Source of the DNA: an uncultured Planctomycetales bacterium
Lineage (GTDB): Bacteria > Planctomycetota > Phycisphaerae > UBA1845 > PWPN01
Length of the DNA: 64,000 bases
Assembly: GCA_964401335.1 (NCBI GenBank)
Contig: CAYNYK010000005.1
Span: 8,362 to 72,361 of the forward strand
Direction: 5' to 3'
The position numbers and the translations under genes were made by a program. This document shows, piece by piece, positions 5,100 through 52,275 of this stretch (positions are counted from its first letter, which is position 1; every line of letters starts with the position of its first letter). Below the pieces are notes generated by a model that had not been told where the DNA came from, ran no database searches, and saw only the letters and a program-made list of their open reading frames with translations.

Positions 5100-6106
5100 T
5101 TGAGTTTCCGAATGATCGCCTCGGTGAACTGGTCGGTGGTGGCCCGGCCGCCGATGTCCGCGGTGAGCTGGGCCGGATCACCTTCGGTCAGAACGGCGTC
5201 GTACGCATCGCGAATACGGTCGGCGGCCTGATTTTCGTCGAGGTGGCGAAGCATCATCACGCCGCTCATGATGCAGGCCAGCGGATTGGCCAGCCCCTTG
5301 CGGGCGATGTCCGGAGCGGAGCCGTGCACCGGTTCAAAAACGGCACAACCGGTGCCGAAATTCGCCCCCGGTACCACACCCAATCCGCCAACCAAGCCGG
5401 CGGCCATGTCACTGACGATGTCGCCGTAGAGGTTTTCAAGCAGCAGAATATCAAACCGGCCGGGGTCGCGGACCATCTGCATGCAACCGTTGTCGATAAT
5501 CAGTTGGTCGTAAGCCACGCGGCCGACATAATCACGGTGTACTTTTTGGGCGCAACGCAGGAAAAGCCCGTCGGACATTTTCATGATATTAGCCTTGTGG
5601 AAGACGGTGACGTTCTGACGCTTGCGGGAGACGGCGTAATCGAAGGCGAAACGGGCGATTCGCAAGCAGGCCTCCTCGGTGGCGATCTTGAGGCTCTGGA
5701 CCACGCCGGGGATGATCTCGTTTTCGATGCCGGAATAGAGACCCTCGGTATTCTCGCGAATGATGACCATATCGACGTTATCGAAGCGGGTCTTGATGCC
5801 GGGCAGGTTGCGCACGGGGCGGACGGCCGCGAAGAGTTTGAGACGTTTGCGGAGCTGCACGTTGACGCTGGCATGGCCGCGACCGATGGGCGTGGTGACC
5901 GGACCCTTCAGGGCGACGCCGTGTCCGGCGATGGCCGCGATCGTCCGCTCGGGAAGCACCGAGCCGCAGAATTCGACAGCCGTCTCGCCGATCGGCAGCG
6001 ATACCCACTCGATATCCACCCCCGCCGCCTCGATTACCCGCTTGGTCGCCCCGATTACCTCCGGGCCGATGCCGTCACCGGGCAACAAGCAAACCGTATG
6101 GGCCAT
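5096..6106 (-). CDS. Isocitrate/isopropylmalate dehydrogenase family enzyme, most like NAD-dependent isocitrate (or homoisocitrate) dehydrogenase
   Basis: LPGDGIGPEV, IRENTEGLYSG, NLYGDIVSD, FEPVHGSAPDIA. The 335-aa length fits the short IDH3/HICDH-like subgroup. Confidence 0.85.
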   Translation of the reverse strand: MAHTVCLLPGDGIGPEVIGATKRVIEAAGVDIEWVSLPIGETAVEFCGSVLPERTIAAIAGHGVALKGPVTTPIGRGHASVNVQLRKRLKLFAAVRPVRNLPGIKTRFDNVDMVIIRENTEGLYSGIENEIIPGVVQSLKIATEEACLRIARFAFDYAVSRKRQNVTVFHKANIMKMSDGLFLRCAQKVHRDYVGRVAYDQLIIDNGCMQMVRDPGRFDILLLENLYGDIVSDMAAGLVGGLGVVPGANFGTGCAVFEPVHGSAPDIARKGLANPLACIMSGVMMLRHLDENQAADRIRDAYDAVLTEGDPAQLTADIGGRATTDQFTEAIIRKLK

Positions 6107-6520
6107 TGTTGTACCTTTCGTTCATGGAAGAGGCCGACAGGACGGCCTGGCGTTTACACGACGCTACCTGCGATTCGCAACGATTTTCCGATTATAACCG
6201 GTCGGCGTCTGGGAGCAACGTAAAGCAGGGCCGTTCGGTTATAACGGCATAGCGGGTTGCCGGTTAGCCCTGTAGCATGCCTGTGAAATATGCAAATGTA
6301 ACAGGGGTCAGAGTGGCATGGGCAGGCCCTTGTCGCGCCCGGCGGGACAAGGGTTTGCCCGTGTTTCTCCGGTAATTCAATGATGGGGTGACCTCACCAA
6401 GCCATTCGGAACATACCTGTGCCATTGTTTTCGTATGTAACCCGAGAAAACAACGATGAACCGCTTGGCAACGTTCGTGATAACCAGCATAATAACAATG
6501 CCTGAAATATGGAGGCGGCG

Positions 6521-7447
6521 ATGAAGATCAAACCGGACCAGATTATTAATGGCGATTGCGTAAAGGGCATGGGGCAGATCGAGCCCGGCTCGGTGGACTT
6601 GGCGTTCGCGGACCCGCCGTTCAATATCGGTTACAAGTACGACGTGTACGACGACGAGCGCGGCGACGATGAATATCTCAACTGGTCGCGGTCGTGGATG
6701 GGCGCGGTGGTGAGGGCGCTCAAACCCAGCGGCACATTCTGGCTGGCGATCGGCGACGAATACGCGGCCGAGCTGAAAGTAATCGCCACGAAGGAACTGC
6801 ACCTGATCTGCCGAAGCTGGGTGGTGTGGTATTACACGTTCGGGGTGAACTGCGTGCGAAAATTCAGCCGCAGCCACGCCCACCTTTTCTATTTCATCAA
6901 AGATCCGAATAATTTCACCTTCAATGCCGACGACCCGGCCATTCGGATTCCCTCGGCCCGGCAACTGGTTTACGCCGACGCCCGGGCCAATCCCAAGGGA
7001 CGACTGCCCGACGACACTTGGATACTGCGTCCGCAGGACCTGCCGGACGGCTTTGGGCCGGAGCAGGATACGTGGTATTTCCCGCGGGTGTGCGGTACGT
7101 TCAAGGAGCGTAAAGGCTGGCACGGCTGCCAGATGCCCGAGCAGTTACTCGGCCGCATCATTCGGGCGTGCTCCAATCCAGGAGAACTGGTCCTGGATCC
7201 CTTCGCTGGCAGTGGGACGACGTTATCGGTGGCCAAGAAACTGGGGCGTCAGTATCTGGGTTTTGAATTATCGAAGGAGTATGCCGAGCAGGTTCGCAAT
7301 CGCCTGGCCTCGATCAAGACCGGCGACCCGCTCGACGGGACCGCCGAGCCCCTGCGTAGTGTCCCGGCCACACCGGAGCAGCCGAGGCAGCGACGGCGAC
7401 AAATCACGAGTAAACCGGATTCGTTGTCGCAAAGTTTGTTTGCGTGA
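6521..7447 (+). CDS. Site-specific DNA methyltransferase, beta-class (N6-adenine or N4-cytosine), orphan
   Basis: Motif IV DPPFN comes before motif [10 protein letters not shown], which is the beta permutation. INGDC..G leader as in ParB-less CcrM/M.HinfI-like enzymes. No nuclease gene is adjacent. Confidence 0.85.
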
Positions 7448-7452
7448 GAAAG

Positions 7453-7473
7453 CGGATCAGCATTCAGCGGTCA
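7453..7473 (-). repeat. Phased heptanucleotide repeat (TGANNGC)x3, minus-strand orientation
   Basis: TCA at 7457, 7464 and 7471 (period 7). Reverse-complement units are tgaccgc/tgaatgc/tgatccg. The array starts 6 nt after the methyltransferase stop. Confidence 0.7.
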
Positions 7474-7664
7474 GCTTGCAGTAATCGGCGTTCGGCATTG
7501 CGGGAATGTTCATGAGCTTGGGGAACACGAAGCGGAAGTTGCTCCCGGTCGCCAGCGCGGTATAGTGCATGGTGTTCACCAGCTTTCACGGAGTTTCGGG
7601 GCCTCCGCGCAAGCGGCCGTTACGGCCTCCATATTCCCGCCCCGGCCAGTAGAAAGGTGGAACC

Positions 7665-7991
7665 ATGCGTCTCTTATCCTACATCTTCGTTGGCGTTCTG
7701 ATCGGCAGTCTTGTATGCGTCGTTGGTTGCAAGAAGGAAGAGGAGAAACCGGCGTCAACCATAGGCGGTGCGTTGGAAAAGGCCACCGGCGAAATCGAGA
7801 AGGCTTCCGAGAAAGCCGTCGAGCAGGCCGAGAAGAATCTCGAAGCCGTCACCCAGGCCATCAAGGACGGCAATCATGATGCCGCCGAGAAAACCCTCAA
7901 GACGCTGGAAGACATCAAGAACACCTTGCCGGAGTCATTGCAGAAGAAGATTGACGACACCCGCAAGGCGTTGAACGACGCGAAGAAATAA
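7665..7991 (+). CDS. Small secreted lipoprotein, Lys/Glu-rich helical
   Basis: Signal peptide plus lipobox VVGC. RBS aaaggtgg upstream. Low-complexity E/K/A-rich mature part. Confidence 0.6.
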   Translation: MRLLSYIFVGVLIGSLVCVVGCKKEEEKPASTIGGALEKATGEIEKASEKAVEQAEKNLEAVTQAIKDGNHDAAEKTLKTLEDIKNTLPESLQKKIDDTRKALNDAKK

Positions 7992-8067
7992 GTCGTCCGA
8001 CCGGGGACTCTCGGAACGTCAATACCGAGCGAAGGGGTGCTAGTTACCGTTGTCGGCAAATCGGTGT

Positions 8068-8346
8068 TCATCTGGGCAGTTCGTACAACCCCTGACCCGC
8101 ATAACGAAGCTTGCCTTGTTGGACAAGGGCGTCCCACACGATCTTGGGATATTGATTGGGTGGTTGGATGGCCTGGATGCTCGACTTGCCCCCGCTGCTC
8201 ATGGCTCCACGTCCGAGACTTGATTCATCATCAAGACGGGTGAGCTTGAGCCGTTTCTTGAAAGCGTGATACGCCTTTTTTATTTGCTCGGGGGGAATGC
8301 TCGATTCCGATTGATCCCGGTTTTCAGGTTGATCCATGTTCATCAA
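8068..8346 (-). CDS. Hypothetical protein (92 aa)
   Basis: ORF of reasonable composition, co-oriented with 8391..8579. No recognisable motif. Confidence 0.45.
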   Translation of the reverse strand: MMNMDQPENRDQSESSIPPEQIKKAYHAFKKRLKLTRLDDESSLGRGAMSSGGKSSIQAIQPPNQYPKIVWDALVQQGKLRYAGQGLYELPR

Positions 8347-8390
8347 TCGCTTTCCTTGGCGAGCAGGGTAACTTCCTCGTCGTCAAAGCA

Positions 8391-8579
8391 TCATGTTGCC
8401 TTTGTGATCTGTTCTATCTTTACGTTGCGATAGAATCCCTCCGCGATGATTTTATCGTGTTCCACCCTTGCCTCGGCCTCGGTGTCGTACTTGCCAAGCG
8501 TCACGATCTTATTGTCTGATGAACGGCCTCGGATACGCCAATGCCAGACCTTCGGTTCGCCCTTTGGTCGAATAATCAT
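8391..8579 (-). CDS. Small protein with AP2-like DNA-binding signature (tentative)
   Basis: WHWRIRGRSSDNKIVTLGKYDTEAEARVEHD resembles the AP2/ERF core W.ARI...GK...LG.F.T.EEAA.AYD. Confidence 0.4.
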   Translation of the reverse strand: MIIRPKGEPKVWHWRIRGRSSDNKIVTLGKYDTEAEARVEHDKIIAEGFYRNVKIEQITKAT

Positions 8580-8667
8580 GAAATCCTCAATTCAAGCCCA
8601 GATACTCAGTCGCAGGTTGCCGATTTTTCCCGCAGTAAACGGTCTTCGCCCCCCTATTCTACCAGAA

Positions 8668-8696
8668 TTGACTCAAGAAGGCACATCGGGTATTAT
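8668..8696 (+). promoter_or_regulatory. Sigma70-type promoter for the RRM protein gene
   Basis: TTGACT (8668-8673), 17-nt spacer, TATTAT (8691-8696). It predicts a ~150-nt 5'UTR before the ATG at 8854. Confidence 0.45.
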
Positions 8697-8853
8697 ACGG
8701 TTCGGTTGGTTCGTCGAAAGAGCCGGATACGACCATCGTCGCACCCTTCTCGTTCGTCTTCCTGCCATACCGGGTTGAATGTCAGCCCCTTTCCACTTGG
8801 ACCCGGAAAGCAAAATGCGGGTTCCCCAAGCCATTCACACAGGAGATCGACGA

Positions 8854-9165
8854 ATGGGCAAAAAATTATACGTTGGAAACCTGACCTATGACATGACCAG
8901 TTCCGCCCTTGAAACGCTGTTTACGGAGCATGGAACCGTGCAGAGCGCGGAAGTCATCATGGACCGTTCGACGGGACGAAGCAAGGGCTTCGGCTTTGTT
9001 GAAATGGGTTCGGATCAAGAGGCTCAGGCGGCCATCTCGGCACTGAACGGCCAAGACCATGGCGGGCGAGCCCTAACGGTCAATGAAGCCAAGCCTCGCG
9101 AATCCCGCGGCGGCGGTGGCGGCGGCGGTCGTGGTGGTTACGGCGGCGGTCGTAGCCGCTATTAG
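8854..9165 (+). CDS. RRM-type RNA-binding protein with Gly-rich tail
   Basis: RNP2 LYVGNL and RNP1 KGFGFVEM. C-terminal GGGGGGRGGYGGGR. RBS aggaga 8 nt upstream of the ATG at 8854. Confidence 0.9.
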   Translation: MGKKLYVGNLTYDMTSSALETLFTEHGTVQSAEVIMDRSTGRSKGFGFVEMGSDQEAQAAISALNGQDHGGRALTVNEAKPRESRGGGGGGGRGGYGGGRSRY

Positions 9166-9197
9166 ACCATAGTAATCCGTCAGACTATGAAACCACG

Positions 9198-9222
9198 GGG
9201 CCACGGAAGTGGCCCTTTTTTA
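9198..9222 (+). terminator. Intrinsic terminator
   Basis: gggccac-ggaa-gtggccc followed by T6. Confidence 0.75.
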
Positions 9223-9554
9223 TTGGGAGTGAACGAGGGGCGTCGCCGGAGTCGGTAGTCGAACGATTCGTGCCCCGCCTCGACCGGATTTACGAGTTAC
9301 AACAAATGTCCAAGTCCTCACGGGTAGCATGAGACGCTGCCGCCCATGGACGGCCTGGCAAACGAATTACTGGATCATGTAAGGGCATGCCATCGGGGGG
9401 GCTACCTATTTCGATGACCATTTGATTTTCCAGCTTGGGTTTCTCGGTACCAAGAGTGCATTTCCCACGTCAACCAACTTTTTGAGGTATCTGTACCCAT
9501 TTTTCCGTCGCCTATATGATGGGAGATGAGGAAAGGATATTGGGAGGCGTTGGG

Positions 9555-11522
9555 ATGAAGGTTGTGGATATTTTCGCGAATGGCGGGTTGATTGCCCGTC
9601 GGCTGGAGCGTTACGAAGCGCGGCCTCAACAGTTGGAGATGGCCGCCGCCGTCGAACAGGCGTTCGGCCAATCGCGGCACCTGCTGGTCGAGGCGGGCAC
9701 GGGGGTGGGCAAGAGCTTTGCCTACCTCGTACCGGCTATTCAACGGGCTGTCCACGCCAAAGAGCGCGTGCTTATCAGTACGCATACCATCGCATTGCAG
9801 GAGCAATTGATCGATCGGGACATTCCTTTCCTGGCGGCGGTATGGCCGGACGAATTTTCGGCCGTCCTTATCAAGGGCCGACACAATTACCTTTGCATCC
9901 GCCGTCTGCGCCAGGTAAGTGAACGGCAAAAGACGCTCTTTGCCGAGCAGGAGCAGTACGATGATCTGTGGCGGATCGAGGACTGGGCGTACAAAACCAC
10001 CGAGGGGTCGCTGAGCGAGCTTTCGCCGGCGCCGGACCCGGCGGTATGGGAAACAGTCCGCAGCGAGCATGGCAACTGCCTGGGGCGCAAATGCGCGTCC
10101 TATGAAAAATGCTTTTATCAGCGGGCCCACCGGCGGGCCCAGAACGCGCAGATCCTGGTGGTCAATCATGCCCTGTTGTTGTCGGACCTGGCCTTGCGAC
10201 GGGAGGGAAGCGCCCTGCTGCCGGATTATGAGCTGGTGGTGATCGACGAGGCCCACAGTTTCGAGAACGTGGCGGCGGAGCATTTTGGCCGACGGGTTTC
10301 CGAAGGGCAGGTGCGATATCTGCTGAACGGCTTGTATAACGACCGCACCGGCCGGGGTTTACTGATCGGTTATGAGGACCTCAAGGCAATCAAGGCGGTC
10401 GGTGCGGCCCGCAACATCTCCAAGAACTTCTGGAAACGGCTGCTCGAATGGCATCGGCAGCACGGGCGGCCGAACGGACGGATTACCGAGCGGGTACCCG
10501 TGCCGAATCCGTTAAGCGAAGCCCTGAGCACGTTGAAGGCAACCTTGCGGGCGATGCGGAAGAAGCTTAAGACGGAGGAGGAAGTATACGAGGTTACCAG
10601 TTATGCGGAACGGGCGGGCGCGCTGGGCGACGAGCTACGCAAGTTGTTGGAGCAGGAGCGGGCCGACGCGGTACACTGGCTGGAGGTTGATAACGGTCCA
10701 CGCGGGCAGATTGCTTTGTGCGAAGCGCCGATTACGGTAGGTGATGAATTACGGACCGCACTATTCGACGAAGTGCGCAGCGTGGTGTTGACCAGCGCGA
10801 CGTTATCGGTAGGGGGGAGAGACGGGTTTGCTTACATCCGGGCGCGATTGGGGCTGGAGGAGGCGGATGAACTGCAGTTAGGCTCGCCATTTGACTATGC
10901 CCGGCAGGCGGAATTGCACATCGAGGCCGGTATGCCGGATCCCAGCGACAGCGGGGCGTTTGTGGCGGCGGCGACGGAAGCGATTGAACGGCATGTCATG
11001 GAAACCGCCGGGCGGGCGTTCGTGCTGTTTACCAGTTACGAGATGATGCGGCAGGTGGCCGAGCGGCTGCGCGAACGACTGGAGCAGGCGGACTTGGGTT
11101 TGATGGTCCAAGGCGAGGGCGTGCCGCGGACACTGATGCTTGAGCGATTCCGCGGGACGGCGACGCTGGGGGAGAACCGATATCGCGGCTGGGTACTGTT
11201 CGGTACGGACAGTTTCTGGCAGGGAGTGGATGTTCCCGGAGAAGCGCTCAGCAACGTGATCATCGTCAAGTTGCCCTTCGCGGTGCCGGATCGTCCGTTG
11301 ATCGAGGCCCGGGTGGAGCATATCCGCTCGGCGGGCGGCAATCCGTTCATGGATTACCAGGTACCCGAGGCAATCCTGAAATTCAAGCAGGGTTTCGGGC
11401 GCTTGATCCGGACGGCCACCGACCGGGGGCGCGTAGTCGTGCTCGACCCGCGGATCAAGACCAAACGCTACGGGAGGATGTTTCTCGACGCGGTTCCCCG
11501 CTGCCGGGTAGTGACCCATTGA
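9555..11522 (+). CDS. dinG: ATP-dependent DNA helicase, DinG/XPD (Rad3) family
   Basis: Walker [14 protein letters not shown] box (VIDEAHSF). Fe-S Cys cluster C..(N)..[13 protein letters not shown]-terminal motif FWQGVD..G. RBS gggagg before the ATG at 9555. Confidence 0.9.
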
Positions 11523-11601: not shown

Positions 11602-12366
11602 TCAGGGACTAGTGTAAATCAACCCCTTACGGCTGCGACTGTGGGTTATCAGGCCGGTATCTCCCGAATGCAACAGCCAGTATTTGCGACGCAGAGGGAA
11701 ATACGCCAATTCAATCTGATCGTTGCTATTCGGTATCCGGTCGAACTTGGGCGACTTCGGATCGGGGCCGACGCTCCAGACCGCGTAGGCAACCGGGCTT
11801 TTCTCCCGATCATTGTAGAAATCCTGATAATCCGCGCGCGGGGCCTTGTGGCAGTTGGGATAATCGTCGGGCACGAAAAGATAGGAACCTTTCTTCGAGT
11901 AACTGCTCCCTTCGTTAAGAAAGAGACCACCGGGCGCACGATATTTATACGTCGAGTCCGGATCAAAAACATCCGGCATGTCCGCCTGGGGAGCAATTCC
12001 CTGCTTTTTTGGAAGCCAGCGATTCTTAACCAGTTCGACAGGCAACTGATGGCAAACCCAGGTGTTGCAACTTTCGCGCGTGGGGGGGAACTCATCCTTG
12101 TTTATCAAGGCATAACCGTCCAGGGCGATGGTGATCTGGCGGAGGTCGTGATGAGCTTTAACCACCCGGGCCTGCATCCGGGCTCTATGCAACGAAGGGA
12201 GTAGCAGGGATAGAAGCAAAGCGACGATGGCCACCACCACCAGCACCTCGATCATGGTGAAGCCGGCCAAGAACTTGGAGGCGCATCCATTATGGCACGA
12301 CGGCCGACAGGAATGTCGACCGTCGCGCCGCAGGAATCCACCTTCGATTGAGCCGCGCATTTTCAT
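11602..12366 (-). CDS. Prepilin-type N-terminal cleavage/methylation domain protein (pseudopilin-like)
   Basis: LAG|FTMIEVLVVVAIVALLLSLLLP class III signal. Its start lies 5 nt downstream of the stop of the upstream dockerin-protein gene on the minus strand, so the two are probably an operon. Confidence 0.75.
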   Translation of the reverse strand: MKMRGSIEGGFLRRDGRHSCRPSCHNGCASKFLAGFTMIEVLVVVAIVALLLSLLLPSLHRARMQARVVKAHHDLRQITIALDGYALINKDEFPPTRESCNTWVCHQLPVELVKNRWLPKKQGIAPQADMPDVFDPDSTYKYRAPGGLFLNEGSSYSKKGSYLFVPDDYPNCHKAPRADYQDFYNDREKSPVAYAVWSVGPDPKSPKFDRIPNSNDQIELAYFPLRRKYWLLHSGDTGLITHSRSRKGLIYTSP

Positions 12367-12371
12367 GGTAC

Positions 12372-13775
12372 TTAATGAAACAAGTATGCCTTTGTTGTGG
12401 ATAAGTCCAGAGTATTGATAATGCCATCAACAAAGACGTCACAGTTGAAATTTGTCGATGTCAACGGTTGAAATAGCTGAGATTTAACGACGGACAAGTC
12501 AAGAGTATTGACATGATCGTCAGCGTTAACGTTACCGGTATGAACCTGGATCGTCAGGTCATCGTCGCCGCTTAGCGGGTTATCGACCAGGTCGGTAATT
12601 CCGTTGAGCGTAATAGTCAACAACGAAGGAGAGGGTACCCCTGAAATAGCGAGGCGCATCTCCGCCCCGTCGACTTCGGCCGCGAGCAGCGTGCCGCTCG
12701 ACAAGCTTATTTCCGATCCATCGAGATGGCCGTCGGCGGGCTGCACGGCTTTACTGAACGTGAGGACGACCTCGGTTGGTCCACCCACGCGACACTCGAT
12801 CGCCGGTGTACCGCTTAAGGGCAAATCCAGATCAAATACGCCCGCCGACCCGTGAGTTTTACGGGATACCGCGCTGAGCAGCATCAGCTCGGAATTATAC
12901 TCCACGATATCCGCCATCCGCAGCACCCATAGCCGATAACCACTCGTGTAGTCCGAAGATTCCTGATCGAAGATGCCCAGGACATCAAAGCTGCCGGCCG
13001 GCGGTGCATAGTCATTGAAATCACCCATAACAGACAAGAGCATGGAGAGGTTGGCCGTCCCGTCGCTGATGGTCAAGGTCTGGCCGGCACCCCAGGTACC
13101 GCCGACAATCTGCGCTTTGTTGATGCGAACCCAAGTAGCTTGGTAATACTCCGCGCCGGTCAATCGCGTCGAGTCAAATACGACAGCTTGGGCCAAGCTG
13201 GGAATCACCGCCGGCGCGGGACGCCCCACGCCGGCCTCAAGAAGAATCACATCGAAGTTGTTGGCCGGATCATTGCTATGCGCCTCGTTGATATTGGTTT
13301 TGCCTTTATTGAAGAGACCCGGCACGCGGGCCCGGACCTCGACCAAATCGCCTTTGCGGAAATGATGCCCCGTCGCTGGATCATAATTCACCCGGAGCAT
13401 CTCGGCTTCCCATTGTTCGTCGGTATAGCGTAGGGGTAGCGGAGCGATGGGGGGGGCCTGTCCCATCCAACAGGCGGTCCCGCCCCAATCGCCCGATTCA
13501 ACGGCCTGGATATAAATCTGCCACTGTCCTTTTACGACACCGGGGGCCCCCGCCGACATGTTGAGCATATCTTCCGGATTATTCAGGATGATACCTTTCA
13601 TACGGATAGGCGGAGAGGGTAAAAATGTGCCGAATCCGGTGGCATCGACAGCCTGATAGGCGGAGTGGGCGGTATAGGGCAGGGTTTCCCAGTCGGGATC
13701 GTCGGCAAAAGCTAAAGAACCCGACAAAATAACCCCCCAAACCACGACCGTAATTAACCAAGGATTTCGCTGCAT
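12372..13775 (-). CDS. Secreted protein with C-terminal dockerin-type repeats
   Basis: Signal peptide (..SLAFADD). The C-terminus carries two Ca-binding-loop-like repeats, NADDHVNTLDLSVVKSQL and DVFVDGIINTLDLSTTKAYL. RBS ggggag. Confidence 0.7.
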   Translation of the reverse strand: MQRNPWLITVVVWGVILSGSLAFADDPDWETLPYTAHSAYQAVDATGFGTFLPSPPIRMKGIILNNPEDMLNMSAGAPGVVKGQWQIYIQAVESGDWGGTACWMGQAPPIAPLPLRYTDEQWEAEMLRVNYDPATGHHFRKGDLVEVRARVPGLFNKGKTNINEAHSNDPANNFDVILLEAGVGRPAPAVIPSLAQAVVFDSTRLTGAEYYQATWVRINKAQIVGGTWGAGQTLTISDGTANLSMLLSVMGDFNDYAPPAGSFDVLGIFDQESSDYTSGYRLWVLRMADIVEYNSELMLLSAVSRKTHGSAGVFDLDLPLSGTPAIECRVGGPTEVVLTFSKAVQPADGHLDGSEISLSSGTLLAAEVDGAEMRLAISGVPSPSLLTITLNGITDLVDNPLSGDDDLTIQVHTGNVNADDHVNTLDLSVVKSQLFQPLTSTNFNCDVFVDGIINTLDLSTTKAYLFH

Positions 13776-13817
13776 GATTCATTCTCCCCAAAAAAACCAA
13801 AAACCTCATTCGATGAC

Positions 13818-13846
13818 ATTATTACGATTTTGATAATCGTAATAAT
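13818..13846. promoter_or_regulatory. 29-bp near-perfect AT-rich palindrome, candidate NikR-type operator
   Basis: attattacgattttgataatcgtaataat has 13 of 14 symmetric pairs. Outer hexamers are ATTATT-N17-AATAAT. It lies 43-71 nt upstream of the start of 12372..13775 and 79 nt downstream of the nikR stop. Confidence 0.45.
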
Positions 13847-13924
13847 TTCATAGCATAACTAGTTTTCGGGGAGGTTCAAGAGGAAAAGGGGATAAAAACA
13901 AAAAATTTTTAGATTGGCGAGGGT

Positions 13925-14341: not shown

Positions 14342-14518
14342 GGGTGAAGTCCTCAAAAAAGTCAGCATCAAACGGGTACGTGGCAACATCAAACTATAGG
14401 GTATGTATGATAAGGCAAAAGATGTGGTTACCCAAGGGCTGAAAGGTCAGAGCTCTGCTTCGAGCATCACACGATCATGTCCTGTAGTCCGAAGGGCGGA
14501 TTTGTTTATAATGCCGGC

Positions 14519-15325
14519 ATGGACGAAATTTACCAATTGCCCATACCTGATTGGGGGCTGCGTTGCCCGCATTGTCGCACCCTTCTGGCCGGTATGCATG
14601 GCTATTTCTGTGACAATTGTCGAAAGGGATTCGACATCTTGCATCTTTTAGCCGAGCACAAACCCATTGCTCCTGTCGGATTGACCTGCCCTTTCTGCGA
14701 ATATTCGCTGACCGGTTTAACGCTTAATCGCTGCCCGGAATGCGGCCATCCGTTTTCCGTGCGTGTAATGCTTGAAAAGAGAGTGCGGTGGGCGAGGGAT
14801 CCGTCCGGGGGAATTGTCGAGTACGACCACCATCTGAAAAAACGCGAACCCTCGTTCACCGGCCGCGAGCGGCCGTTACCGGATTTCGGATTGATCTGTA
14901 CTTCCTGCGGAGCGCCGCTGGCCGGCGCGGAAGACGACCGTTGTCCGGCATGTAATCAACCCTTTGATATCCACAATATTGGACAACAGGACGACTGGGT
15001 GGACATCAGCCCCTACGTGTCGCCGAGAATGGTACCAGTGGTTCGTACGGTCCTTTACGATGCTAAGGTTCCTTACGTTGTCGACGACGCGAGTTTGCAC
15101 CGATTGTATGGAGGTCTTGTATCCATAGGTTCCGCCGCCATCCGGGTGCCCCGCGAGTTTATTCTCGACGCGCTTTATGCGCTTAGTTTTGCTGCCAAAC
15201 CACCCTCCCTTTATGTCGATCAGGCCTGGTCTTGTCCGAATTGCGGCCAGCAGGTTCCCGCGGGCTTTGAAATCTGCTGGAACTGCAACGCGGCCTGTCC
15301 GGATTTGGGGGATGCGGAGACATGA
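14519..15325 (+). CDS. Triple zinc-ribbon protein with DUF2007-like C-terminal domain and terminal rubredoxin-like knuckle
   Basis: Three repeats of CPxC-x10-12-CxxC-x3-F: CPHC..CDNC, CPFC..CPEC, CTSC..CPAC. The protein ends WSCPNCG..FEICWNCN. Confidence 0.6.
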   Translation: MDEIYQLPIPDWGLRCPHCRTLLAGMHGYFCDNCRKGFDILHLLAEHKPIAPVGLTCPFCEYSLTGLTLNRCPECGHPFSVRVMLEKRVRWARDPSGGIVEYDHHLKKREPSFTGRERPLPDFGLICTSCGAPLAGAEDDRCPACNQPFDIHNIGQQDDWVDISPYVSPRMVPVVRTVLYDAKVPYVVDDASLHRLYGGLVSIGSAAIRVPREFILDALYALSFAAKPPSLYVDQAWSCPNCGQQVPAGFEICWNCNAACPDLGDAET

Positions 15326-24632: not shown

Positions 24633-27600
24633 ATGGACACTTTCGCATCGATGTTGACGCATCCGCTGGTGCAGCGCCTGGGGTGGGCCTTGCTGCACTC
24701 GCTCTGGCAGGGGCTGTTGGCGAGCCTGTTACTGGGATTTTTCCTTTTCTTCGTGCGCCGCCGGTCGGCCGGCGCGCGTTATCTCTGCTCGTGTGCGGCC
24801 TTGATGCTGTCCCTGGCCATGCCGACGGCCACCCTATTCCTCGTCCACGTTCCGCACCATGCGGGGTGGATATCGCCCGCTCCTTCTGAACTCCCCTTGC
24901 CAAGCGAGGCACCCAATGAAACTCCGGCATACAGCCCCGGGATGATTGAGGCGAGTATTCCGCCCCGCGCAATGCCGCCATCGGCCGTCATACCGGTTAC
25001 ACCAACAACGCCTTCGTCGGTGGGTATCTCCGAACGTCTCGAACCGTACCTGCCCTGGGCGGTCTTGCTCTGGCTGGTTGGCGTGTGCATTTTATCGCTG
25101 CGCTTGCTCGGCGGTTGGGTCAAGGTCCAGCGGATCAAGCGGCGTTGCGTGCAGCCGGCCGCCGCCCAATGGCAGGAAATGCTCGATAATCTGATGCACC
25201 AGTTGCGAATTTCGCGTCCCGTGCGGCTGCTGGAATCTGCGCTCGTGCAGGCCCCGGCCGCCATCGGTTGGCTCAAGCCGGTCATTCTCCTGCCCGCCTG
25301 CGCCCTGTCCGGCCTGACGCCCGATCAATTGCGGATGATCCTGGCTCACGAACTGGCCCACATCCGCCGTTACGATTACCTCGTCAATCTGCTCCAGACG
25401 GTCATCGAGACTCTGCTGTTTTATCACCCGGCCGTCTGGTGGATTTCCCGCCGTATCCGCGCCGAGCGGGAAAACTGCTGTGACGACATCGCCGTCGCCG
25501 CCGGCGGCCGCCCGCTCGACTACGCCCGGGCACTTACCGAGTTGGAATCCCTTCGCGGCCCGTCCCCGTCCCTGGTCGCCGCCGCCTCCGGCGGCTCGCT
25601 GCTGGAACGCATCCGACGCATCCTGAATCTCCCCTCCGCCGGTCACAATTATCTCAGCCGCTCGCTGGCCGGCTTGTTATTAATCTCCATCATACTCACC
25701 GCAACCATCAGCCTGCATCTCTATTCCGATGTAGGATGGGCATCGGAAGTCCCATCCACCACCCGGCCGACCAACGACGACCCCTCTTCCGAACAGGTCC
25801 TAAACGTGACCTTTCGAGACGCCGGCGACCTCAACCAACTGGTCCGCAGCGGCGGCAACTGGAAAATCAAAAACAACGAACTGCTCGGCACCTGCGGCGG
25901 CGATCAAAGCTGGGCCACCTGTCGCACCTCCTTCAAACGGATTTCTTCGGTCCTGATTCGCGGGCAAATCGTGCCGCCAAGTACGCAGAATTTCCGTGTC
26001 TGGGTCGGTCCGATTCACCTGATTTTCAACTGGGAAATGGCCGACCAGAACCATTACCGCACCAACCAGGAACTGACCGTGACCCAACCCCACGCTTTGA
26101 CCGCGGGGCAATGGCACGATATCGAGTTTAAGCAGAATGATAACAAGGTGGTTGTTACGGTCGATGGAAAAACCGTCTACCAGACCACGGCCGAGTTGGC
26201 CGGCACAATCTCCGTGCAGTCCGCCTGGAACTCCACCATCGCTGTTCAACAAATACGCATCGTCGGCGTACCTGACCCGGCCGTCAGGGTGGAGCCGCTG
26301 GCCAAACCACTTCCTGATGCCGCCCCACTTACGCGCCAACCAGACGCGGTCGCGCGCAAGCCCAAGCCTGATCTATCGAAATGCGGAACCCTCACCACCA
26401 AGGTGACCGATCGCGACGGCCAACCCGCGGAGGATGTGAGCGTATTTATCATTTCCGCGGACCAGTCCGCCGGGCTCGTACAAACAAACCAGGAGGGTAT
26501 CTTCAGTTCGGATCATGCTCCGGCCGGCCGTTACACCGTCGTGGCTTTCAAAGGCAACAGGCCTCCGGCCAAGGGATGGAAAGATCATCAGGGATACCTC
26601 ATGGGCGCGAAGCGCGACGTGCAGGTCACGGCCGGCGAAACCACCACCGTGCAGTTGCAGCCGCCCGGGACGGCCAACCTGGATGTCACCTTGGCCAAAC
26701 CCGATCCTTACCACCTGGAGTGGGGCATTGTGTTGCTGGCTCTCTCGCCCATCGAACTGCCTACCGGGCAGACGGGGAAAGCCGCCGCTTTTCCGATACC
26801 CGCCGATCTGCTGGGTATGTTTTTCGTCGAGCCGGGCAAGCCCTGCACCATCCACAACCTGCCCGAAGGCCTGATTCACGTCCGGGCCACTCCTTCCGAT
26901 CCCGGCCCGATGGACTTCTCGTCAAATATCGCCATCACAATCCGAGCCGGGCAGAAGAATACGCTCGACCTGCAACTGACGCCCCGTAACCGCTTCGAGG
27001 GCAAACTGGAGTTCGATAAGGATGTTAAGATCGGCTTATCCGCTCCGGCGGGGGACACGAAAGACGGGGTTTCTCTGTTGACGATGAAATTCAGCAGGCG
27101 GGATAACCAACTGTCCGCGGAGATGAAATTGGGCGTCATTTCCTGGCCTAAAACGAAGTGGCGATTCACGGTGGATCTGCTGGACAGTCAAGGCAAGGTG
27201 CTGAAATCAATCCAAAATATCTTTGAAAACAGCGGGATTGCATTAGGTTTCGCTTTGTTGGGCTCCGAAAAACTTGAATTAAATCTGGGCCCCTGGTCGG
27301 ATGTCTCCGCCGCCACGCGCTTCGCGGTCAGCATCGAGCAAATCAGTTCACAAACCCCCACCCGGCCGGCGGCCGTTCCCGCCGAATTCGACTTAAATCA
27401 AAAAGAGCTATTTTTCCACGGCCTTGATCTGAGTAAGGCGCCGGTTGAAACAAATGTTCGGCGACTGCCGGACTTGTGGCATGCAGTCCCGCCCGGTAGT
27501 GGATCCTACGAAAGACGGCCGGAAGTGCAACTATTCGGTTCTGGTTTGGACGGTGTTGTGTATTGGCTACCAGACCAGAACATGTTCTATGTTCAACATG

Positions 27601-28337
27601 ATCATTTGGGTTCAAGCATTTTACATTACTATGGTCCATTCCGCGGTGATCCGCGCAAGATTCTCAACCTGCCTTCCACTACGCAACCGACGACCACTAC
27701 GGATGAACCGCTATGGGGCGAAGCAGTCGAAGGCGCCCAAATCCGGTTACAGCCCGAGAAAAAAACATGGAAGACCGGCGAGACCCCGACCTTTCGTGTC
27801 GATGCGCGAAATACGGGAGCACGTGTATTTGTGTTCGATGATGAGAGTCACTGGAATGAAATCGAGATCGATGGTCAATGGTATAAACCCGAGAAGGCCA
27901 TTGAAGCCGGCACGCGTATTACGCTTTCGGCCATCAGTACCCCTATAACTTTAGCCGGTGAATGGGAACCTTTAAGCGACAAGGAAGTCGCGGAATATGC
28001 GCTCCGTCATTCGCAAAGCACATCTCGAGTAATCGATCCGGAAAAAAGGGTAAACCTGACGCTGTCTCCCGGCCGGCATACTATTCGTGTGGCCTACATT
28101 GCCATGCCCGCAAGGGCCAATACCGGCGACCCCGTCCGCGTGGTCAGCAACTCCGTCGAGATCGAAGTCCTGTCCAACGATCCCGCTAACTCCACCACCC
28201 AGCCCCGCACGGAGCTCCCACGTCCTGCCGTCAACAAGCCCTTTCTACCTCCGCCCGCGCCACCCAAGGACGAAGGGGCCATGAATGCAAATGACGGGGC
28301 GGCCTCCGCCACCCAACCGAGCACACAAATTAGATAG
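24633..28337 (+). CDS. BlaR1-type M56 peptidase sensor with ~850-aa extracytoplasmic extension
   Basis: Four or more N-terminal TM helices. HELAHIRRYD zinc motif (M56). Downstream lie a LamG/DUF1080-like segment (NWKIKNNELLG...), a carboxypeptidase-regulatory-like segment (KVTDRDGQPAEDVSV..GRYTVVAF) and a Pro-rich tail. Confidence 0.85.
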   Translation: MDTFASMLTHPLVQRLGWALLHSLWQGLLASLLLGFFLFFVRRRSAGARYLCSCAALMLSLAMPTATLFLVHVPHHAGWISPAPSELPLPSEAPNETPAYSPGMIEASIPPRAMPPSAVIPVTPTTPSSVGISERLEPYLPWAVLLWLVGVCILSLRLLGGWVKVQRIKRRCVQPAAAQWQEMLDNLMHQLRISRPVRLLESALVQAPAAIGWLKPVILLPACALSGLTPDQLRMILAHELAHIRRYDYLVNLLQTVIETLLFYHPAVWWISRRIRAERENCCDDIAVAAGGRPLDYARALTELESLRGPSPSLVAAASGGSLLERIRRILNLPSAGHNYLSRSLAGLLLISIILTATISLHLYSDVGWASEVPSTTRPTNDDPSSEQVLNVTFRDAGDLNQLVRSGGNWKIKNNELLGTCGGDQSWATCRTSFKRISSVLIRGQIVPPSTQNFRVWVGPIHLIFNWEMADQNHYRTNQELTVTQPHALTAGQWHDIEFKQNDNKVVVTVDGKTVYQTTAELAGTISVQSAWNSTIAVQQIRIVGVPDPAVRVEPLAKPLPDAAPLTRQPDAVARKPKPDLSKCGTLTTKVTDRDGQPAEDVSVFIISADQSAGLVQTNQEGIFSSDHAPAGRYTVVAFKGNRPPAKGWKDHQGYLMGAKRDVQVTAGETTTVQLQPPGTANLDVTLAKPDPYHLEWGIVLLALSPIELPTGQTGKAAAFPIPADLLGMFFVEPGKPCTIHNLPEGLIHVRATPSDPGPMDFSSNIAITIRAGQKNTLDLQLTPRNRFEGKLEFDKDVKIGLSAPAGDTKDGVSLLTMKFSRRDNQLSAEMKLGVISWPKTKWRFTVDLLDSQGKVLKSIQNIFENSGIALGFALLGSEKLELNLGPWSDVSAATRFAVSIEQISSQTPTRPAAVPAEFDLNQKELFFHGLDLSKAPVETNVRRLPDLWHAVPPGSGSYERRPEVQLFGSGLDGVVYWLPDQNMFYVQHDHLGSSILHYYGPFRGDPRKILNLPSTTQPTTTTDEPLWGEAVEGAQIRLQPEKKTWKTGETPTFRVDARNTGARVFVFDDESHWNEIEIDGQWYKPEKAIEAGTRITLSAISTPITLAGEWEPLSDKEVAEYALRHSQSTSRVIDPEKRVNLTLSPGRHTIRVAYIAMPARANTGDPVRVVSNSVEIEVLSNDPANSTTQPRTELPRPAVNKPFLPPPAPPKDEGAMNANDGAASATQPSTQIR

Positions 28338-34125: not shown

Positions 34126-35121
34126 TTACAACCGAGACAAATGCTCTCGCAGGACACGTCGGACACAACACAGACTTTCTCTAAGCATTCCAAGGAACTG
34201 AGGCAGATAGCGTCGAGGGCGGGCCAGGCTGAGGGTCAAGAGAAACAGGGCGATGGTCGCCAGGCTGTAACCGATAACCACGCGATCGCCGAGGCGGGTC
34301 AGTCCGTTACGCCGCATGATCCGGGTGTAATTGCGGACGATCATACGGCCGAAGGCAAAAGGCTCCGGCCGTTGGCACGGATCGTGGTGATGAACAGCTC
34401 GAGCGTTAAGGCTACGGGCAAGCCGGCCGCGCAGGTAAAGACGATAAGACATGTCACGATCTTCGCCAAGCGCGTAACCGCTCAATCCCTCGTCGAAGGG
34501 GTTTTGCACCAGTACTTCGCGACGAAACGACATGGTAGCGCCGACAATGTTTCGGGTGGGAACGATATACGATCGCAAGCGGGCAAATACCGGCGGCGCA
34601 GGCGGCCGTGGACCGTGCGGGGGCAGGGCCCACCAGCCGGCCAGAGAATAAACCAGATCGAACAGCCGCGCAGCCCCGGAAGCTCGTCGCGGCTCGATTA
34701 AAGTGCCCTCCACACCAAGCAGAAGACCTTCGGTATCCGTCGCGTAGACTGCAAGAATTTCCCGCAGAAACCCCTGATCGAGAACCACGTCATCATCGAG
34801 AAATTGCACAATCGCGCCGCGGGCATGGCGGACAGCCAGATTGCGCGAGGCAGGCAGGCCCGGAGGATCCTTACGCAGATAGACAAAGGGGATGGCCGCG
34901 GAATGACAAAGATTGTTCAAATAATCACGATCGGCCTCGGTGAGGCATCCGTCGTCAACGACGATCAGCTCGATCGGCCGCAGGCTCTGACATGTCACGG
35001 AACGTACGCAATTTTTCAGCACATCCGGGCGATCGCGCGTACAAATCACCACGGAACAGTCCGGCCGCGCCGAGGAAGCGGGGGGTATCGGATAGGTTGT
35101 TGAAGGATCGAAGGTGTACAT
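34126..35121 (-). CDS. Family 2 glycosyltransferase
   Basis: SVVICTRDRP..L..C..S...Q......ELIVVDDG and the FLDDD (DxD) motif. Confidence 0.85.
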   Translation of the reverse strand: MYTFDPSTTYPIPPASSARPDCSVVICTRDRPDVLKNCVRSVTCQSLRPIELIVVDDGCLTEADRDYLNNLCHSAAIPFVYLRKDPPGLPASRNLAVRHARGAIVQFLDDDVVLDQGFLREILAVYATDTEGLLLGVEGTLIEPRRASGAARLFDLVYSLAGWWALPPHGPRPPAPPVFARLRSYIVPTRNIVGATMSFRREVLVQNPFDEGLSGYALGEDRDMSYRLYLRGRLARSLNARAVHHHDPCQRPEPFAFGRMIVRNYTRIMRRNGLTRLGDRVVIGYSLATIALFLLTLSLARPRRYLPQFLGMLRESLCCVRRVLREHLSRL

Positions 35122-35132
35122 GGCGTCACCGA

Positions 35133-36707
35133 TTAAACCATCCCCTTCGACAACATGGCCCGTATTCTACGGTAGCCGTCACCAAGCAACTGCCGCAGTT
35201 TTTGCTTACCCTCGATGGTGAATATGACGTTACTCATCCAAGCCAGGACACACAGAACAAGCATGACCGCGATAAACAAATAGATCGGGCCGGCCAAGGC
35301 ATAGGTAGCGGCGATTAACAACACCGTGCCGAAATCAACAGGCCGACGTTCGATCCATATCAGAAAGAAGGCTACCAACACGGCAGCGCTAACTCCCAGG
35401 ATACCCGACCAGACGGCCGCCTGCAGGGCTTGAGCGGGAGTCAGGCCGGGCAGCACCAGCCATCGGCCGGCGACAATGCCGGCCAGCAGTCCGGCGGTCC
35501 AGGGCACAAAAAGGTGCCAAGGACACTCGATCAAACTGAAATGAATGGCCAGAAAGCCCAGGTGCCCGCTGATCATGAAGAACAGCAGCAGGCTGGAAAC
35601 GATGCGCGCGCCTTCCGCGTAATCGCGGGGGAACAGACGGACAAGGACATCGGACAAACCGGCGATCAAGGCACAAAGGACGAGCAGAGTAAGGGCCGTG
35701 GTCTTGAAGGCCAAAGCCAGTTTTCGATCGGCGGCGGGCGGACCCTCGGCTTCCCAAGTTTTCGTAACCGAGGTTTGCACGACGGTGACGACGGCCACGG
35801 AAATAATCAATACGGCCTGGGTCAGCAGCCGGACGCCGCCGAAAACGGCGGTCACCTCGGGTCCGTACACTTTTTGAAGATACCACATCGGATAAAACTG
35901 AAGAGTCTGCCACACGATGGCGGCCAGGGCAACCCAAACCCCGAAGCGCATCAGTCGCTCGACAACCCGATGCATGGAGCCATCGGTGCTCAAAGCCGTC
36001 AGCGACACCTGATCGGGAACCGCCCGGAGCGTCCGACCCAAACCGGGAACAACCAAAAGGGCCGAAGCGAGCAGCGTGAAACCGTAACAAACCAGCATGG
36101 CCACGGCGGTATTTCGGCCGGCCAGAGCAACCAGAACGGCCGTCGCCATGAAAGTCACGTTGCTGACCAGTTCCAGCAAACTGACGGCCCGAAACATACG
36201 CAGACCCTTGAGAATACCCATCAGCAAATAGTAGATCATCAGGGTCAGAGTCACCCCGGTGGCGATACGCGTTAACATAGTGCAAGCTTGAGGTTCCACC
36301 CCGGCGCCGTCGCGGCTCAAGGTGGCAAAAAGGAACCGGCCGATAGGTTCAGCACATAAAGCGACCACGGCGGTCAAACCAAGCCCCACGGCAAGAATCA
36401 GGATTACCGCGCGACGAAGGAATGCCCGCAGGGCCTGTTTCGTTTCATACTGGGGAACATAACGGGCGAGGGCCTCGTTCAGACCCAGGCTGCAAAAGGG
36501 ATCGAGAATATTGACGACGATCAGGGCAATCTGTAATAGACCAAACTCGCCAGTGGTCAACAGCCAGGCAAGCACGACTCCGCGCACCAAACCGATGAAC
36601 CGCGAAGCGAACACGGTTGGCAGGTATACGCTCAGCGATTCACTAATGGTTTCAGACCGAAAAAGAAACGGCCTGCGGACAAGATTGGTACCGGCGGAAA
36701 TGGTCAA
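35133..36707 (-). CDS. Polysaccharide flippase (Wzx/MOP superfamily)
   Basis: ~14 predicted TM helices, 524 aa, EPS-locus context. Confidence 0.75.
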   Translation of the reverse strand: MTISAGTNLVRRPFLFRSETISESLSVYLPTVFASRFIGLVRGVVLAWLLTTGEFGLLQIALIVVNILDPFCSLGLNEALARYVPQYETKQALRAFLRRAVILILAVGLGLTAVVALCAEPIGRFLFATLSRDGAGVEPQACTMLTRIATGVTLTLMIYYLLMGILKGLRMFRAVSLLELVSNVTFMATAVLVALAGRNTAVAMLVCYGFTLLASALLVVPGLGRTLRAVPDQVSLTALSTDGSMHRVVERLMRFGVWVALAAIVWQTLQFYPMWYLQKVYGPEVTAVFGGVRLLTQAVLIISVAVVTVVQTSVTKTWEAEGPPAADRKLALAFKTTALTLLVLCALIAGLSDVLVRLFPRDYAEGARIVSSLLLFFMISGHLGFLAIHFSLIECPWHLFVPWTAGLLAGIVAGRWLVLPGLTPAQALQAAVWSGILGVSAAVLVAFFLIWIERRPVDFGTVLLIAATYALAGPIYLFIAVMLVLCVLAWMSNVIFTIEGKQKLRQLLGDGYRRIRAMLSKGMV

Positions 36708-38224: not shown

Positions 38225-38269
38225 GAATGAACCAGTGAATTAACCGAGAGCCTGTCCGAGCCTCGGCCT

Positions 38270-39208
38270 TTACATGCGGCGATAGAGGAAACCGGGGATC
38301 GGAAACCGCCGCTGATTCAGCACGAGGCCGATCACCTTGCCGTGGGCCAGTTCGACCCGTTTTCTGGCCTCGGCCACGGACTCGCGACGGGTCACGGTGG
38401 CCTTGGTGACCAGCAGGACACCGTCAGTACAGCCGGCCAAGGCCTGGACCGTCGCCTGGGTATTGACCGGCGGGGCATCGATGATCACATGGTCATACGC
38501 CGCCGCCAGATCGCGAACCAAATTGCCGATGTTCTGGCGTTGCATCAGGGAGGAAACGGCGCCCTGAACCTGGCCCGCGACCAGTACACTAAGCCGACCT
38601 TCCTCCAGTTGTTGGGCGGCCGTGACCAAAGTCTTCTGGCCGGCCAGTACCTCCACCACGCCGGGCGCCGATTGCAGACCCAGAATCCGGTGGAGCATGG
38701 GACGACGAAGGTTGAAATCCACCAAGGCGATCCGCAGTCCGCGCTCGGCGGCGCAGCCGGCCAAGGCCAAGGCCACGGCAATCTGACTGACGCCTTCGCG
38801 CGGCTCGGCCGCCGTCACCACTACCGATTTCGGAGCGATTTGTCCCGGGGCAAAGAAGACCGACGCCCAGAGCTGATCCACGGCGTCGCGAGCCCCATGA
38901 CGCAAGGTCGCGGAACGCCCGGCGGTCGAGCGCGAGGCCCTCGGCGCCGAAACGGTAACCGACGACGCGGACTTTTCGGATACGGACCTCCGCGACTGGG
39001 CCAACTCCTCCTCGGATAATTTCACATCGTCGGAGGGCCCCAGGCCGGCACCTTCGGGCAAGGCAAGGTCTTCCTCATCCGGTATCAATAAGTCTTCTTG
39101 CTCGCCGGAAGAGCGCCCCTCGGAGGGCGTCGGCCGGGAAGACTCATCTTCCGACCAGTCGTTCTCGCCGTTCGCGGGATCCCAATCGTTTCCTTTGTCG
39201 CGGACCAT
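38270..39208 (-). CDS. BY-kinase (CpsD/CapB/Wzc C-terminal)-like P-loop protein with degenerate Walker A
   Basis: Walker B VIIDAPPV and A'-like LVDFNLRRP are present. The Walker A position reads AAEPREGVSQ, with no GK[ST]. The N-terminal 110 aa are acidic and disordered. Confidence 0.7.
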   Translation of the reverse strand: MVRDKGNDWDPANGENDWSEDESSRPTPSEGRSSGEQEDLLIPDEEDLALPEGAGLGPSDDVKLSEEELAQSRRSVSEKSASSVTVSAPRASRSTAGRSATLRHGARDAVDQLWASVFFAPGQIAPKSVVVTAAEPREGVSQIAVALALAGCAAERGLRIALVDFNLRRPMLHRILGLQSAPGVVEVLAGQKTLVTAAQQLEEGRLSVLVAGQVQGAVSSLMQRQNIGNLVRDLAAAYDHVIIDAPPVNTQATVQALAGCTDGVLLVTKATVTRRESVAEARKRVELAHGKVIGLVLNQRRFPIPGFLYRRM

Positions 39209-39215
39209 AATATCC

Positions 39216-40946: not shown

Positions 40947-40982
40947 TCCGACGAAGCGACGGTCTCCTGCTTCAAAAATTCC

Positions 40983-52241: not shown

Positions 52242-52275
52242 AATGGGTTCCTCCGAAAAAGCGGCTCGTTGATTG

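Follow-up and report, generated by a model that had tools for sequence, protein, structure and literature searches.

Nickel is the only metal sensed by NikR, and the NikR proteins of Escherichia coli and Pyrococcus horikoshii repress nickel importers (PMC11672702). In deltaproteobacteria the NikR signal is GTGTTAC-N13/14-GTAACAC, an inverted repeat of 27 to 28 bp predicted upstream of nikMNQO and nikKMLQO (Rodionov et al. 2004, PMC545781). For the Planctomycetes, a 2009 survey of three genomes, one of them from a nickel-using organism, found no known nickel or cobalt transporter (PMC2667541). Here we describe a nikR gene, an inverted repeat, and a two-gene operon in a stretch of 64,000 nucleotides from an uncultured Planctomycetales bacterium of the class Phycisphaerae (assembly GCA_964401335.1, contig CAYNYK010000005.1, positions 8,362 to 72,361), hereafter the window. 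The operon consists of gene A, for a predicted secreted dockerin protein, and gene B, for a pilin-like protein; all three genes lie on the minus strand of the window. Sequence comparison makes it likely that NikR represses this operon and that the operon serves nickel uptake. The regulator and its type of operator are already known, and the regulated module is new: the literature searched contained no paper tying NikR to pseudopilins, nor any tying NikR substantively to Planctomycetes.

Pfam recognized both RHH_1 (37 bits) and NikR_C (97 bits) in the nikR product, and the NCBIfam NikR equivalog NF003381 scored 158 bits against a cutoff of 105. The closest solved structure is P. horikoshii NikR (2bj1; E = 5e-36). 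In an alignment with 2bj1 and with Helicobacter pylori NikR (2ca9), the segments dlqH, tHvH, and lC fall at the nickel-ligand positions and are conserved, which bears out the complete high-affinity nickel site that a first-pass annotation of this DNA had read from the sequence. By these comparisons the product is a member of the NikR family with a predicted His3Cys high-affinity site, and operator binding is predicted for it. Divergent from nikR, at 14477-15325 on the plus strand, lies a gene for a 282-residue protein of several double zinc-ribbon motifs; it adjoins nikR only on contigs with an identical NikR (loci L001 to L004 and L007; locus numbers are ours throughout) and not in L011 to L013.

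Between nikR and gene A, where the first-pass annotation had placed it, is the palindrome ATTATTACGATT-TTGAT-AATCGTAATAAT (13818-13846), 29 bp long, with perfect 12-bp arms, a 5-nt spacer, and symmetry at 13 of 14 pairs. It starts 78 nt past the nikR stop codon, lies 43-71 nt ahead of the gene A ATG (13775), and sits where the GC content falls to 0.32. A relaxed search of the window returned one exact copy, against a chance expectation of 0.16. The search for further copies of the dyad that the annotation had proposed, run on the same 64 kb, gave no second NikR box; the sole match with two mismatches, at 52273, is inside a PrmC-like gene. The half-sites had initially been taken as ATTATT-N17-AATAAT, but what orthologs keep is TTATTAC-N13-GTAATAA, a dyad of 27 bp. 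Its half-sites, read on the gene strand, occupy 13845..13839 and 13825..13819, around a spacer at 13838..13826.

A homolog scan built on 12 gene A sequences, with one genome per species, produced 80 further loci, all of them from Planctomycetota (Phycisphaerae, Sedimentisphaerales, Tepidisphaeraceae, Pirellulales, and Thermoguttaceae), and the counts below refer to 83 non-redundant loci for which upstream sequence was available, most species being represented by a single genome. L011, L012, and L013 keep the order nikR, gene A, gene B; their gene A is 78%, 55%, and 45% identical to that of the window, and their flanking genes differ. Each of these loci has TTATTAC or GTATTAC, N13, and GTAATAA or GTAATAC upstream of gene A. 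Half-site sequence and N13 spacing are retained at gene A orthologs of 78%, 55%, 45%, and 41% identity, with spacer and flanks varying. The pattern [GT]T[AG]TTAC-N13-GTAA[CT]A[AC] occurs 35-115 nt upstream of gene A without mismatch in 22 of the 83 loci and with at most one mismatch in 36, whereas the remaining 1.13 Mb of the same loci contains no perfect dyad and a single one with one mismatch. The consensus of the 36 orthologous sites is GTATTACgatTtt...aatCGTAATAC, and CG adjoining the half-sites is frequent in the wider Planctomycetota consensus. As candidates for the functional core, the extended 22-nt arms of the palindrome and its inner CGATT/AATCG were both rejected: L011 keeps neither, nor does it keep the flanks beyond the 27 bp.

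A nikR gene lies within 8 kb in 23 of the 83 loci, in one of three arrangements: ahead of the operon on its own strand, divergent, or downstream. Of the 44 loci that have the dyad, 19 also have nikR; of the 39 that do not, 4 have it (Fisher p = 0.001). Loss of the dyad from orthologous operons with nikR synteny maintained had been named beforehand as an outcome that would speak against operator function; instead the dyad is kept, including where nikR is divergent (L016, L020), downstream (L025, L027, L029), or absent from the locus (L015, L018, and many others). Because the half-sites are conserved while spacer and flanks vary, and because the dyad is kept whether nikR is divergent or absent, the functional unit is taken to be the 27-bp dyad at 13819-13845.

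The annotation had likened the palindrome to the E. coli operator in geometry and to that of H. pylori in composition, and neither sequence nor spacing fits. An E. coli-type box, GTATGA-N16-TCATAC, was rejected: the only traces of it are ATGA (13813-13816) and TCAT (13848-13851), which stand 31 bp apart and are not kept in L011 or L012. The H. pylori NikR consensus, as given in that annotation, is TATWATT-N11-AATWATA; the nearest reading in the window, ATTATTA-N15-TAATAAT, was rejected in turn, the conserved register being N13 with a terminal C/G. The type that does fit, in its geometry, is the deltaproteobacterial one. Compared with GTGTTAC/GTAACAC, the half-sites of the window agree at five of seven bases, those of the Planctomycetota consensus (GTATTAC) at six, and some sites at all seven; the sites of L028, L046, and L054 read exactly GTGTTAC...GTAACAC. 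Co-variation between box variants and the NikR beta-strand (R-x-S/T-x-S/A) was looked for, and no clear pattern emerged.

Metagenomes were then scanned with GTATTACG-N11-CGTAATAC, by sequence only and with no protein information, which returned at least 120 loci. A nikR homolog lies no more than 700 nt from the dyad in 15 of them, with seven open reading frames (ORFs) starting right beside it. These homologs share 36-67% identity with the window NikR, and the GC content of their loci runs from 42% to 70%, a spread that suggests diverse organisms. Among the loci returned, CbiM/NikM adjoins the dyad in eight loci, TonB-dependent receptors in five, and CarboxypepD_reg outer-membrane proteins in three; genes for DUF4198 (NikK-like), NicO, CbiQ, and energy-coupling factor (ECF) S-component proteins also stand beside it, as do gene A in six loci and DUF1559 pilin-like genes in 12. 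The genes recovered in this way read as the known NikR regulon together with predicted new members. Conservation, agreement with a published box type, and the blind scan thus support the earlier proposal that a NikR operator controls the dockerin/pseudopilin operon as a new member of the regulon, and we consider it very probable, from these comparisons, that the dyad is the operator of the adjacent NikR.

Alignment of the window with L011 and L012 shows a conserved -35-like and a conserved -10-like block just upstream of the dyad; at other loci, dyad and TTGAC(A)-N16/17 promoter core overlap. Such a placement, adjacent to or overlapping the promoter, is what a repressor would be expected to have. 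It is consistent with occlusion of the promoter under nickel-replete conditions, repression being the only mode known for the NikR proteins of E. coli and P. horikoshii (PMC11672702).

Both products of the operon are of the kinds first proposed, a signal-peptide dockerin protein and a prepilin-leader protein, in agreement with the Dockerin_1 and TIGR02532 matches. AlphaFold2 modelled residues 30-295 of gene A with a predicted local distance difference test (pLDDT) score of >90, and the dockerin with low confidence. A structure prediction of this protein had been suggested as a way to find metal sites; it yielded two barrels resembling the oligonucleotide/oligosaccharide-binding (OB) fold, and the sequence has no obvious nickel-binding motif. 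Foldseek comparison of the model with the PDB gave weak OB-fold matches (HIN-200, POT1, and RPA; E ~2e-3), which permit no functional transfer, and a profile search against the PDB gave no sequence match. The family is small, with 214 clusters at E ≤1e-30 among 1.84 billion representative proteins; it is restricted to Planctomycetota and contains one invariant His. Its C-terminal anchor varies among relatives, being a dockerin, a PEP-CTERM segment, or nothing, and this variation suggests that the binding domain is displayed on the surface or tethered to the envelope.

Gene B matched TIGR02532 at 23 bits (cutoff, 16.3) and fell just under the cutoff for Pfam N_methyl (19.3 against 21.2 bits). 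A profile of its family matched the N-terminal helices of Geopilin, PilA, and GspG (E = 1e-13), and two His and one Cys are conserved across the family. AlphaFold2 predicted a long N-terminal helix and a beta-sheet; the only pilin match found by Foldseek in the PDB was faint (best E = 0.34), and the globular domain is without a significant solved relative. DUF1559 (PF07596) gave no match to the gene B of the window even at E = 1, and the Pirellulales counterpart, in L019, is a DUF1559 protein (149 bits). The DUF1559 loci of the metagenome scan that have an upstream dyad (L103, L112, L130, L136, L145, L158, L159, L178, L191, L208, L211, and L218) suggest a wider tie between pilin-like proteins and the nickel regulon. 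The dyad stands 9-38 nt from the DUF1559 start in ten of them, and 203 and 273 nt from it in L103 and L211; a DUF4198 (NikK-like) periplasmic protein follows the DUF1559 gene in L130 and L208, and nikR is adjacent in L145 and L218.

Among approximately 45 ORFs of the window, a Pfam survey detected neither nickel enzymes nor known nickel transporters, and no machinery for pili or secretion, whether prepilin peptidase, assembly ATPase, or platform protein. The survey agrees with the first-pass annotation that nickel transporter and hydrogenase/urease genes are missing nearby, and genes A and B themselves have no Pfam, NCBIfam, or PDB-profile homology to components of NikABCDE, Nik/CbiMNQO, NiCoT, or HupE/UreJ systems. 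To say that NikR controls this operon "instead of" a nickel transporter is nevertheless misleading, because the operons of about 30 relatives begin with this gene pair and run on into genes for a ZnuA-type binding protein, an ATP-binding cassette (ABC) ATPase, and an ABC-3 permease. Gene B follows gene A in 76 of the 83 loci; the ZnuA-type gene is found at the same locus in 30, usually followed by those for the ATPase and permease and often preceded by one for an FmdE-domain protein. In L016 and L036, ZnuA is joined by a MacB-type variant.

The binding protein of L016 (9106-10098; also in L017 and L024), whose gene belongs to the nikR-linked cluster, can be aligned with AdcA, a zinc protein (7jj8; E = 5e-27). 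Its His-rich loop is preserved, as are three ligand positions, but Ala stands in place of the first canonical His ligand, which might reflect an altered metal specificity. The ZnuA-like protein of L020 had no PDB sequence match at E = 1e-5. The FmdE-domain protein, small and cytoplasmic looking, with an FHGHLG motif, recurs between gene B and the ZnuA-type gene (L012, 6714-7361; L013, 3674-4183; L015, 8218-8862; L020, 6471-7031; and about 20 further loci) and has no copy in the window; it might handle metal in partnership with the importer. The bioD gene beside it in L012 and L013 was judged to be unrelated synteny.

Taken together, these comparisons suggest the following scheme. With nickel sufficient, the nickel-bound NikR tetramer would seat its two ribbon-helix-helix (RHH) dimers on half-sites two helical turns apart, and NikR on the dyad would block the promoter of genes A and B; with nickel scarce, the operon would be expressed. 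Gene A would then provide a secreted, surface-tethered protein with tandem beta-barrels, and gene B a membrane-anchored pilin-like protein, the two serving as extracytoplasmic accessory components of a nickel-acquisition route specific to Planctomycetota. In relatives, the route would be assembled in one operon with the FmdE-like protein and the ZnuA/ABC ATPase/ABC-3 importer; in this genome, the importer would be encoded elsewhere. Genes A and B may capture nickel or a nickel chelate, or may pass nickel to the binding protein. That the A-B module takes part in nickel acquisition is, on balance, what its genomic company favors.

Several observations weigh against this scheme. Neither gene A nor gene B has a His/Cys-rich motif, so that direct nickel binding is not evident; the 64-kb window holds no importer genes; and ZnuA/ABC-3 transporters normally carry zinc, manganese, or iron, with AdcA the nearest solved relative of the L016 protein. 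The outermost half-site position is T in the window, as it is in L011 and L012, and G in the consensus. A strict sigma-70 scan called no promoter for gene A, the -35-like hexamer being below threshold, and we therefore treat that promoter as putative. About 39 of the 83 homologous loci, mainly from Pirellulales and Sedimentisphaerales, are without the dyad and have other upstream signals, four of them with nikR nearby; the module is therefore not always under dyad control and can be wired to other signals. Finally, the dyad is also found at the promoters of seven vapBC-like modules with an AbrB-type antitoxin, so the sequence is not exclusive to NikR, and its assignment rests on context. These promoters, together with the transporter family and its link to AdcA, would suit a different regulator, of the Zur/Fur or AbrB type, that binds the dyad and governs a module for zinc or manganese, the linkage to nikR being incidental; the published Geobacter Zur box, moreover, has ATCGTAAT/ATTACGAT words. 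We regard such a regulator as improbable: nikR alone among regulator genes turns up repeatedly as a neighbor (23 loci and three arrangements, with enrichment where the dyad is present), none of the loci with listed genes has a Zur/Fur or AbrB gene beside gene A, and the blind scan yields nikR, NikM, NicO, CbiQ, and DUF4198, not zinc genes.

The palindrome might instead act mainly as an intrinsic terminator or attenuator of nikR, an explanation already raised in the first-pass annotation. The spacer RNA (13776-13924, minus strand) does form a long palindrome-centred hairpin followed by GUUUUUUU (U7), at -35.3 kcal/mol and z = -4.0, but its stem is AT-rich, and a terminator scan found nothing at the site. 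The U-run and the extended outer stem are missing in L011 and L012; conservation falls on the two 7-bp half-sites and not on base pairing, the inner stem being altered in L011; and the dyad is retained, as described above, where nikR is divergent, downstream, or absent. A rho-independent terminator was rejected for its lack of a G+C-rich stem, of a terminator call, and of conservation. We consider a primarily terminating role highly improbable, and any such role would be at most local and secondary; the stable hairpin with its U7 is species-specific and might supplement the operator with local termination or attenuation. If NikR does regulate the operon, genes A and B could still act outside nickel import, in surface remodelling, adhesion or carbohydrate binding, or extracellular nickel sequestration. 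The dockerin and the interchangeable anchors point to surface display, OB-like barrels are generic ligand binders, and the sequences and surroundings in the window offer neither an obvious nickel-binding motif nor an adjacent transporter. Against this stand the tight order A-B-(FmdE)-ZnuA-ATPase-permease, on one strand and with short gaps in about 30 species, the position of the NikR box relative to the promoter, which is typical of nickel-repressed uptake genes, and the predominance of uptake components among the other genes beside the same dyad. A role outside import therefore seems unlikely to us, and a NikR-repressed nickel-uptake operon is the reading that we prefer.

Table 1. Positions of the genes, protein segments, and DNA elements of the nikR-gene A-gene B region, in window coordinates.
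Feature	Position	Strand	Description
nikR, 138 aa	13925..14341	-	RHH DNA-binding domain and NikR C-terminal nickel-binding domain, His3Cys ligands
-35-like hexamer TTGAAC, putative gene A promoter	13874..13879	-	TTGAAC/TTGAAT/TTGACA in window, L011, L012
-10-like hexamer TATGCT, putative	13852..13857	-	16 nt past -35-like hexamer; dyad begins 6 nt downstream
Extended imperfect palindrome	13808..13856	both	22-nt arms, 86% complementary; core is the 29-bp palindrome 13818-13846
NikR-box-type dyad TTATTAC-N13-GTAATAA, 27 bp	13819..13845	both	0 mismatches to [GT]T[AG]TTAC-N13-GTAA[CT]A[AC]
Gene A, 467 aa	12372..13775	-	Signal peptide, two OB-like beta-barrels, middle beta domain, C-terminal type I dockerin
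Gene A signal peptide	residues 1-24, 13704-13775	-	Sec-like by inspection
Gene A conserved N-terminal domain	residues ~25-295, 12891-13703	-	Two OB-like beta-barrels (AlphaFold2)
Gene A dockerin	residues 416-465, 12381-12530	-	Pfam Dockerin_1 (PF00404), 28.2 bits, cutoff 22.9
Gene B, 254 aa	11602..12366	-	Pilin-like; starts 5 nt past gene A stop codon
Gene B prepilin motif G35|F36-T-M-I-E40 and hydrophobic helix	12196-12264	-	After positively charged leader; conserved globular domain follows

The vapBC-like loci that share the dyad (L114, L127, L152, L156, L160, L195, and L202) have it directly after a TTGAC -35-like element; each module encodes a small AbrB/SpoVT-type antitoxin (TLTSKGQVTVP) and then a PIN-domain toxin, and the operator appears indistinguishable from the NikR box. 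Among the loci without the inverted dyad, ten A-B-ZnuABC loci from Pirellulales and Sedimentisphaerales that are also without nikR nearby (L065, L078, L080, L083, L087, L088, L090, L092, L095, and L098) have a direct repeat, GTAGCACGAA...GTA[GA]CACGA(A/T), about 30 bp from start to start, within the 150 nt upstream of gene A. The GTAGCACGAA repeat brackets a -10-like TATTCT that follows a TTGAC -35 element, and its half-site is similar to GTAACAC, one arm of the NikR box. The Pirellulales locus L019 (genes at 5998-7605 and 8001-10084) has its gene A homolog and DUF1559 protein behind a sigma-54-type promoter, TGGCAC-N5-TGCA (7720-7760), with no NikR box; a divergent gene for a GAF/sigma-54 activator adjoins them.

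In the window, a convergent gene for a DinG-like helicase closes the unit of genes A and B. Farther away, a capsule/exopolysaccharide cluster on the minus strand (34126-43320) encodes a GT2 glycosyltransferase, a Wzx-like flippase, a Wzy_C polymerase/ligase, a P-loop tyrosine-kinase-like ATPase, a 576-residue protein without a Pfam match, a Poly_export/SLBB protein, and a TPR-SPOR protein. On the plus strand, 24633-28337 encodes a 1,234-residue protein with a BlaR1-type M56 peptidase sensor domain and a CarboxypepD_reg domain.

The module A-B-(FmdE)-ZnuABC is a candidate for the system by which Phycisphaerae and their relatives take up nickel. If the assignment is correct, it would supply a class of nickel transporter for the phylum, whose three genomes in the 2009 survey had yielded no known one, and it would tie pilin-like and DUF1559-type proteins, which are highly expanded and poorly understood in the phylum, to metal acquisition, giving a first functional handle on DUF1559-like proteins. 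A more specific proposal, which we advance tentatively, is that the gene B family and at least part of the very large DUF1559 expansion form, with a secreted partner of tandem beta-barrels, an extracytoplasmic apparatus for nickel capture or delivery that feeds a ZnuABC-type importer recruited to nickel.

The module can be compared with several known systems. Like type II secretion system pseudopilins and type IV pilins, gene B has a G|F-T-x-I-E leader, a hydrophobic N-terminal helix, and a helix-plus-sheet fold; unlike theirs, its neighborhood has no secretion or pilus-assembly genes, and in relatives it contains metal-importer genes. The genes downstream of A and B in those relatives, for ZnuA, an ABC ATPase, and an ABC-3 permease, correspond to the cluster A-I systems ZnuABC, AdcA, and TroA. 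Known members of that cluster carry zinc, manganese, or iron under Zur, MntR, TroR, or Fur, whereas here there is a NikR box and linkage to nikR, and a nickel function would extend cluster A-I importers to this metal. A parallel to the proposed role of genes A and B is seen in NikK and NikL (DUF4198 and others), extra periplasmic components of NikMQO systems that have N-terminal membrane anchors and which are likewise accessory and extracytoplasmic, stand at the front of a NikR-controlled importer operon, and are proposed to capture nickel; they have no sequence similarity to genes A and B, and gene B has a prepilin-type leader in place of a plain membrane anchor.

With E. coli NikR the window shares an RHH regulator with a His3Cys site and a dyad spanning about two helical turns, which in E. 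coli lies at a nickel-uptake promoter that is repressed when nickel is replete (PMC11672702); the half-site differs, and the E. coli target is an ABC transporter of the peptide/nickel family, which the target here is not. The deltaproteobacterial box is matched in its 7-bp half-sites ending in TTAC and beginning with GTAA, in the N13 spacer and 27-bp length, and in its position upstream of uptake genes and near nikR. The Planctomycetota consensus differs from it in reading GTATTAC with an extended CGAT/ATCG, and the controlled genes are unrelated to NikMNQO. One type of operator sequence would thus be common to the NikR regulons of deltaproteobacteria and Planctomycetota.

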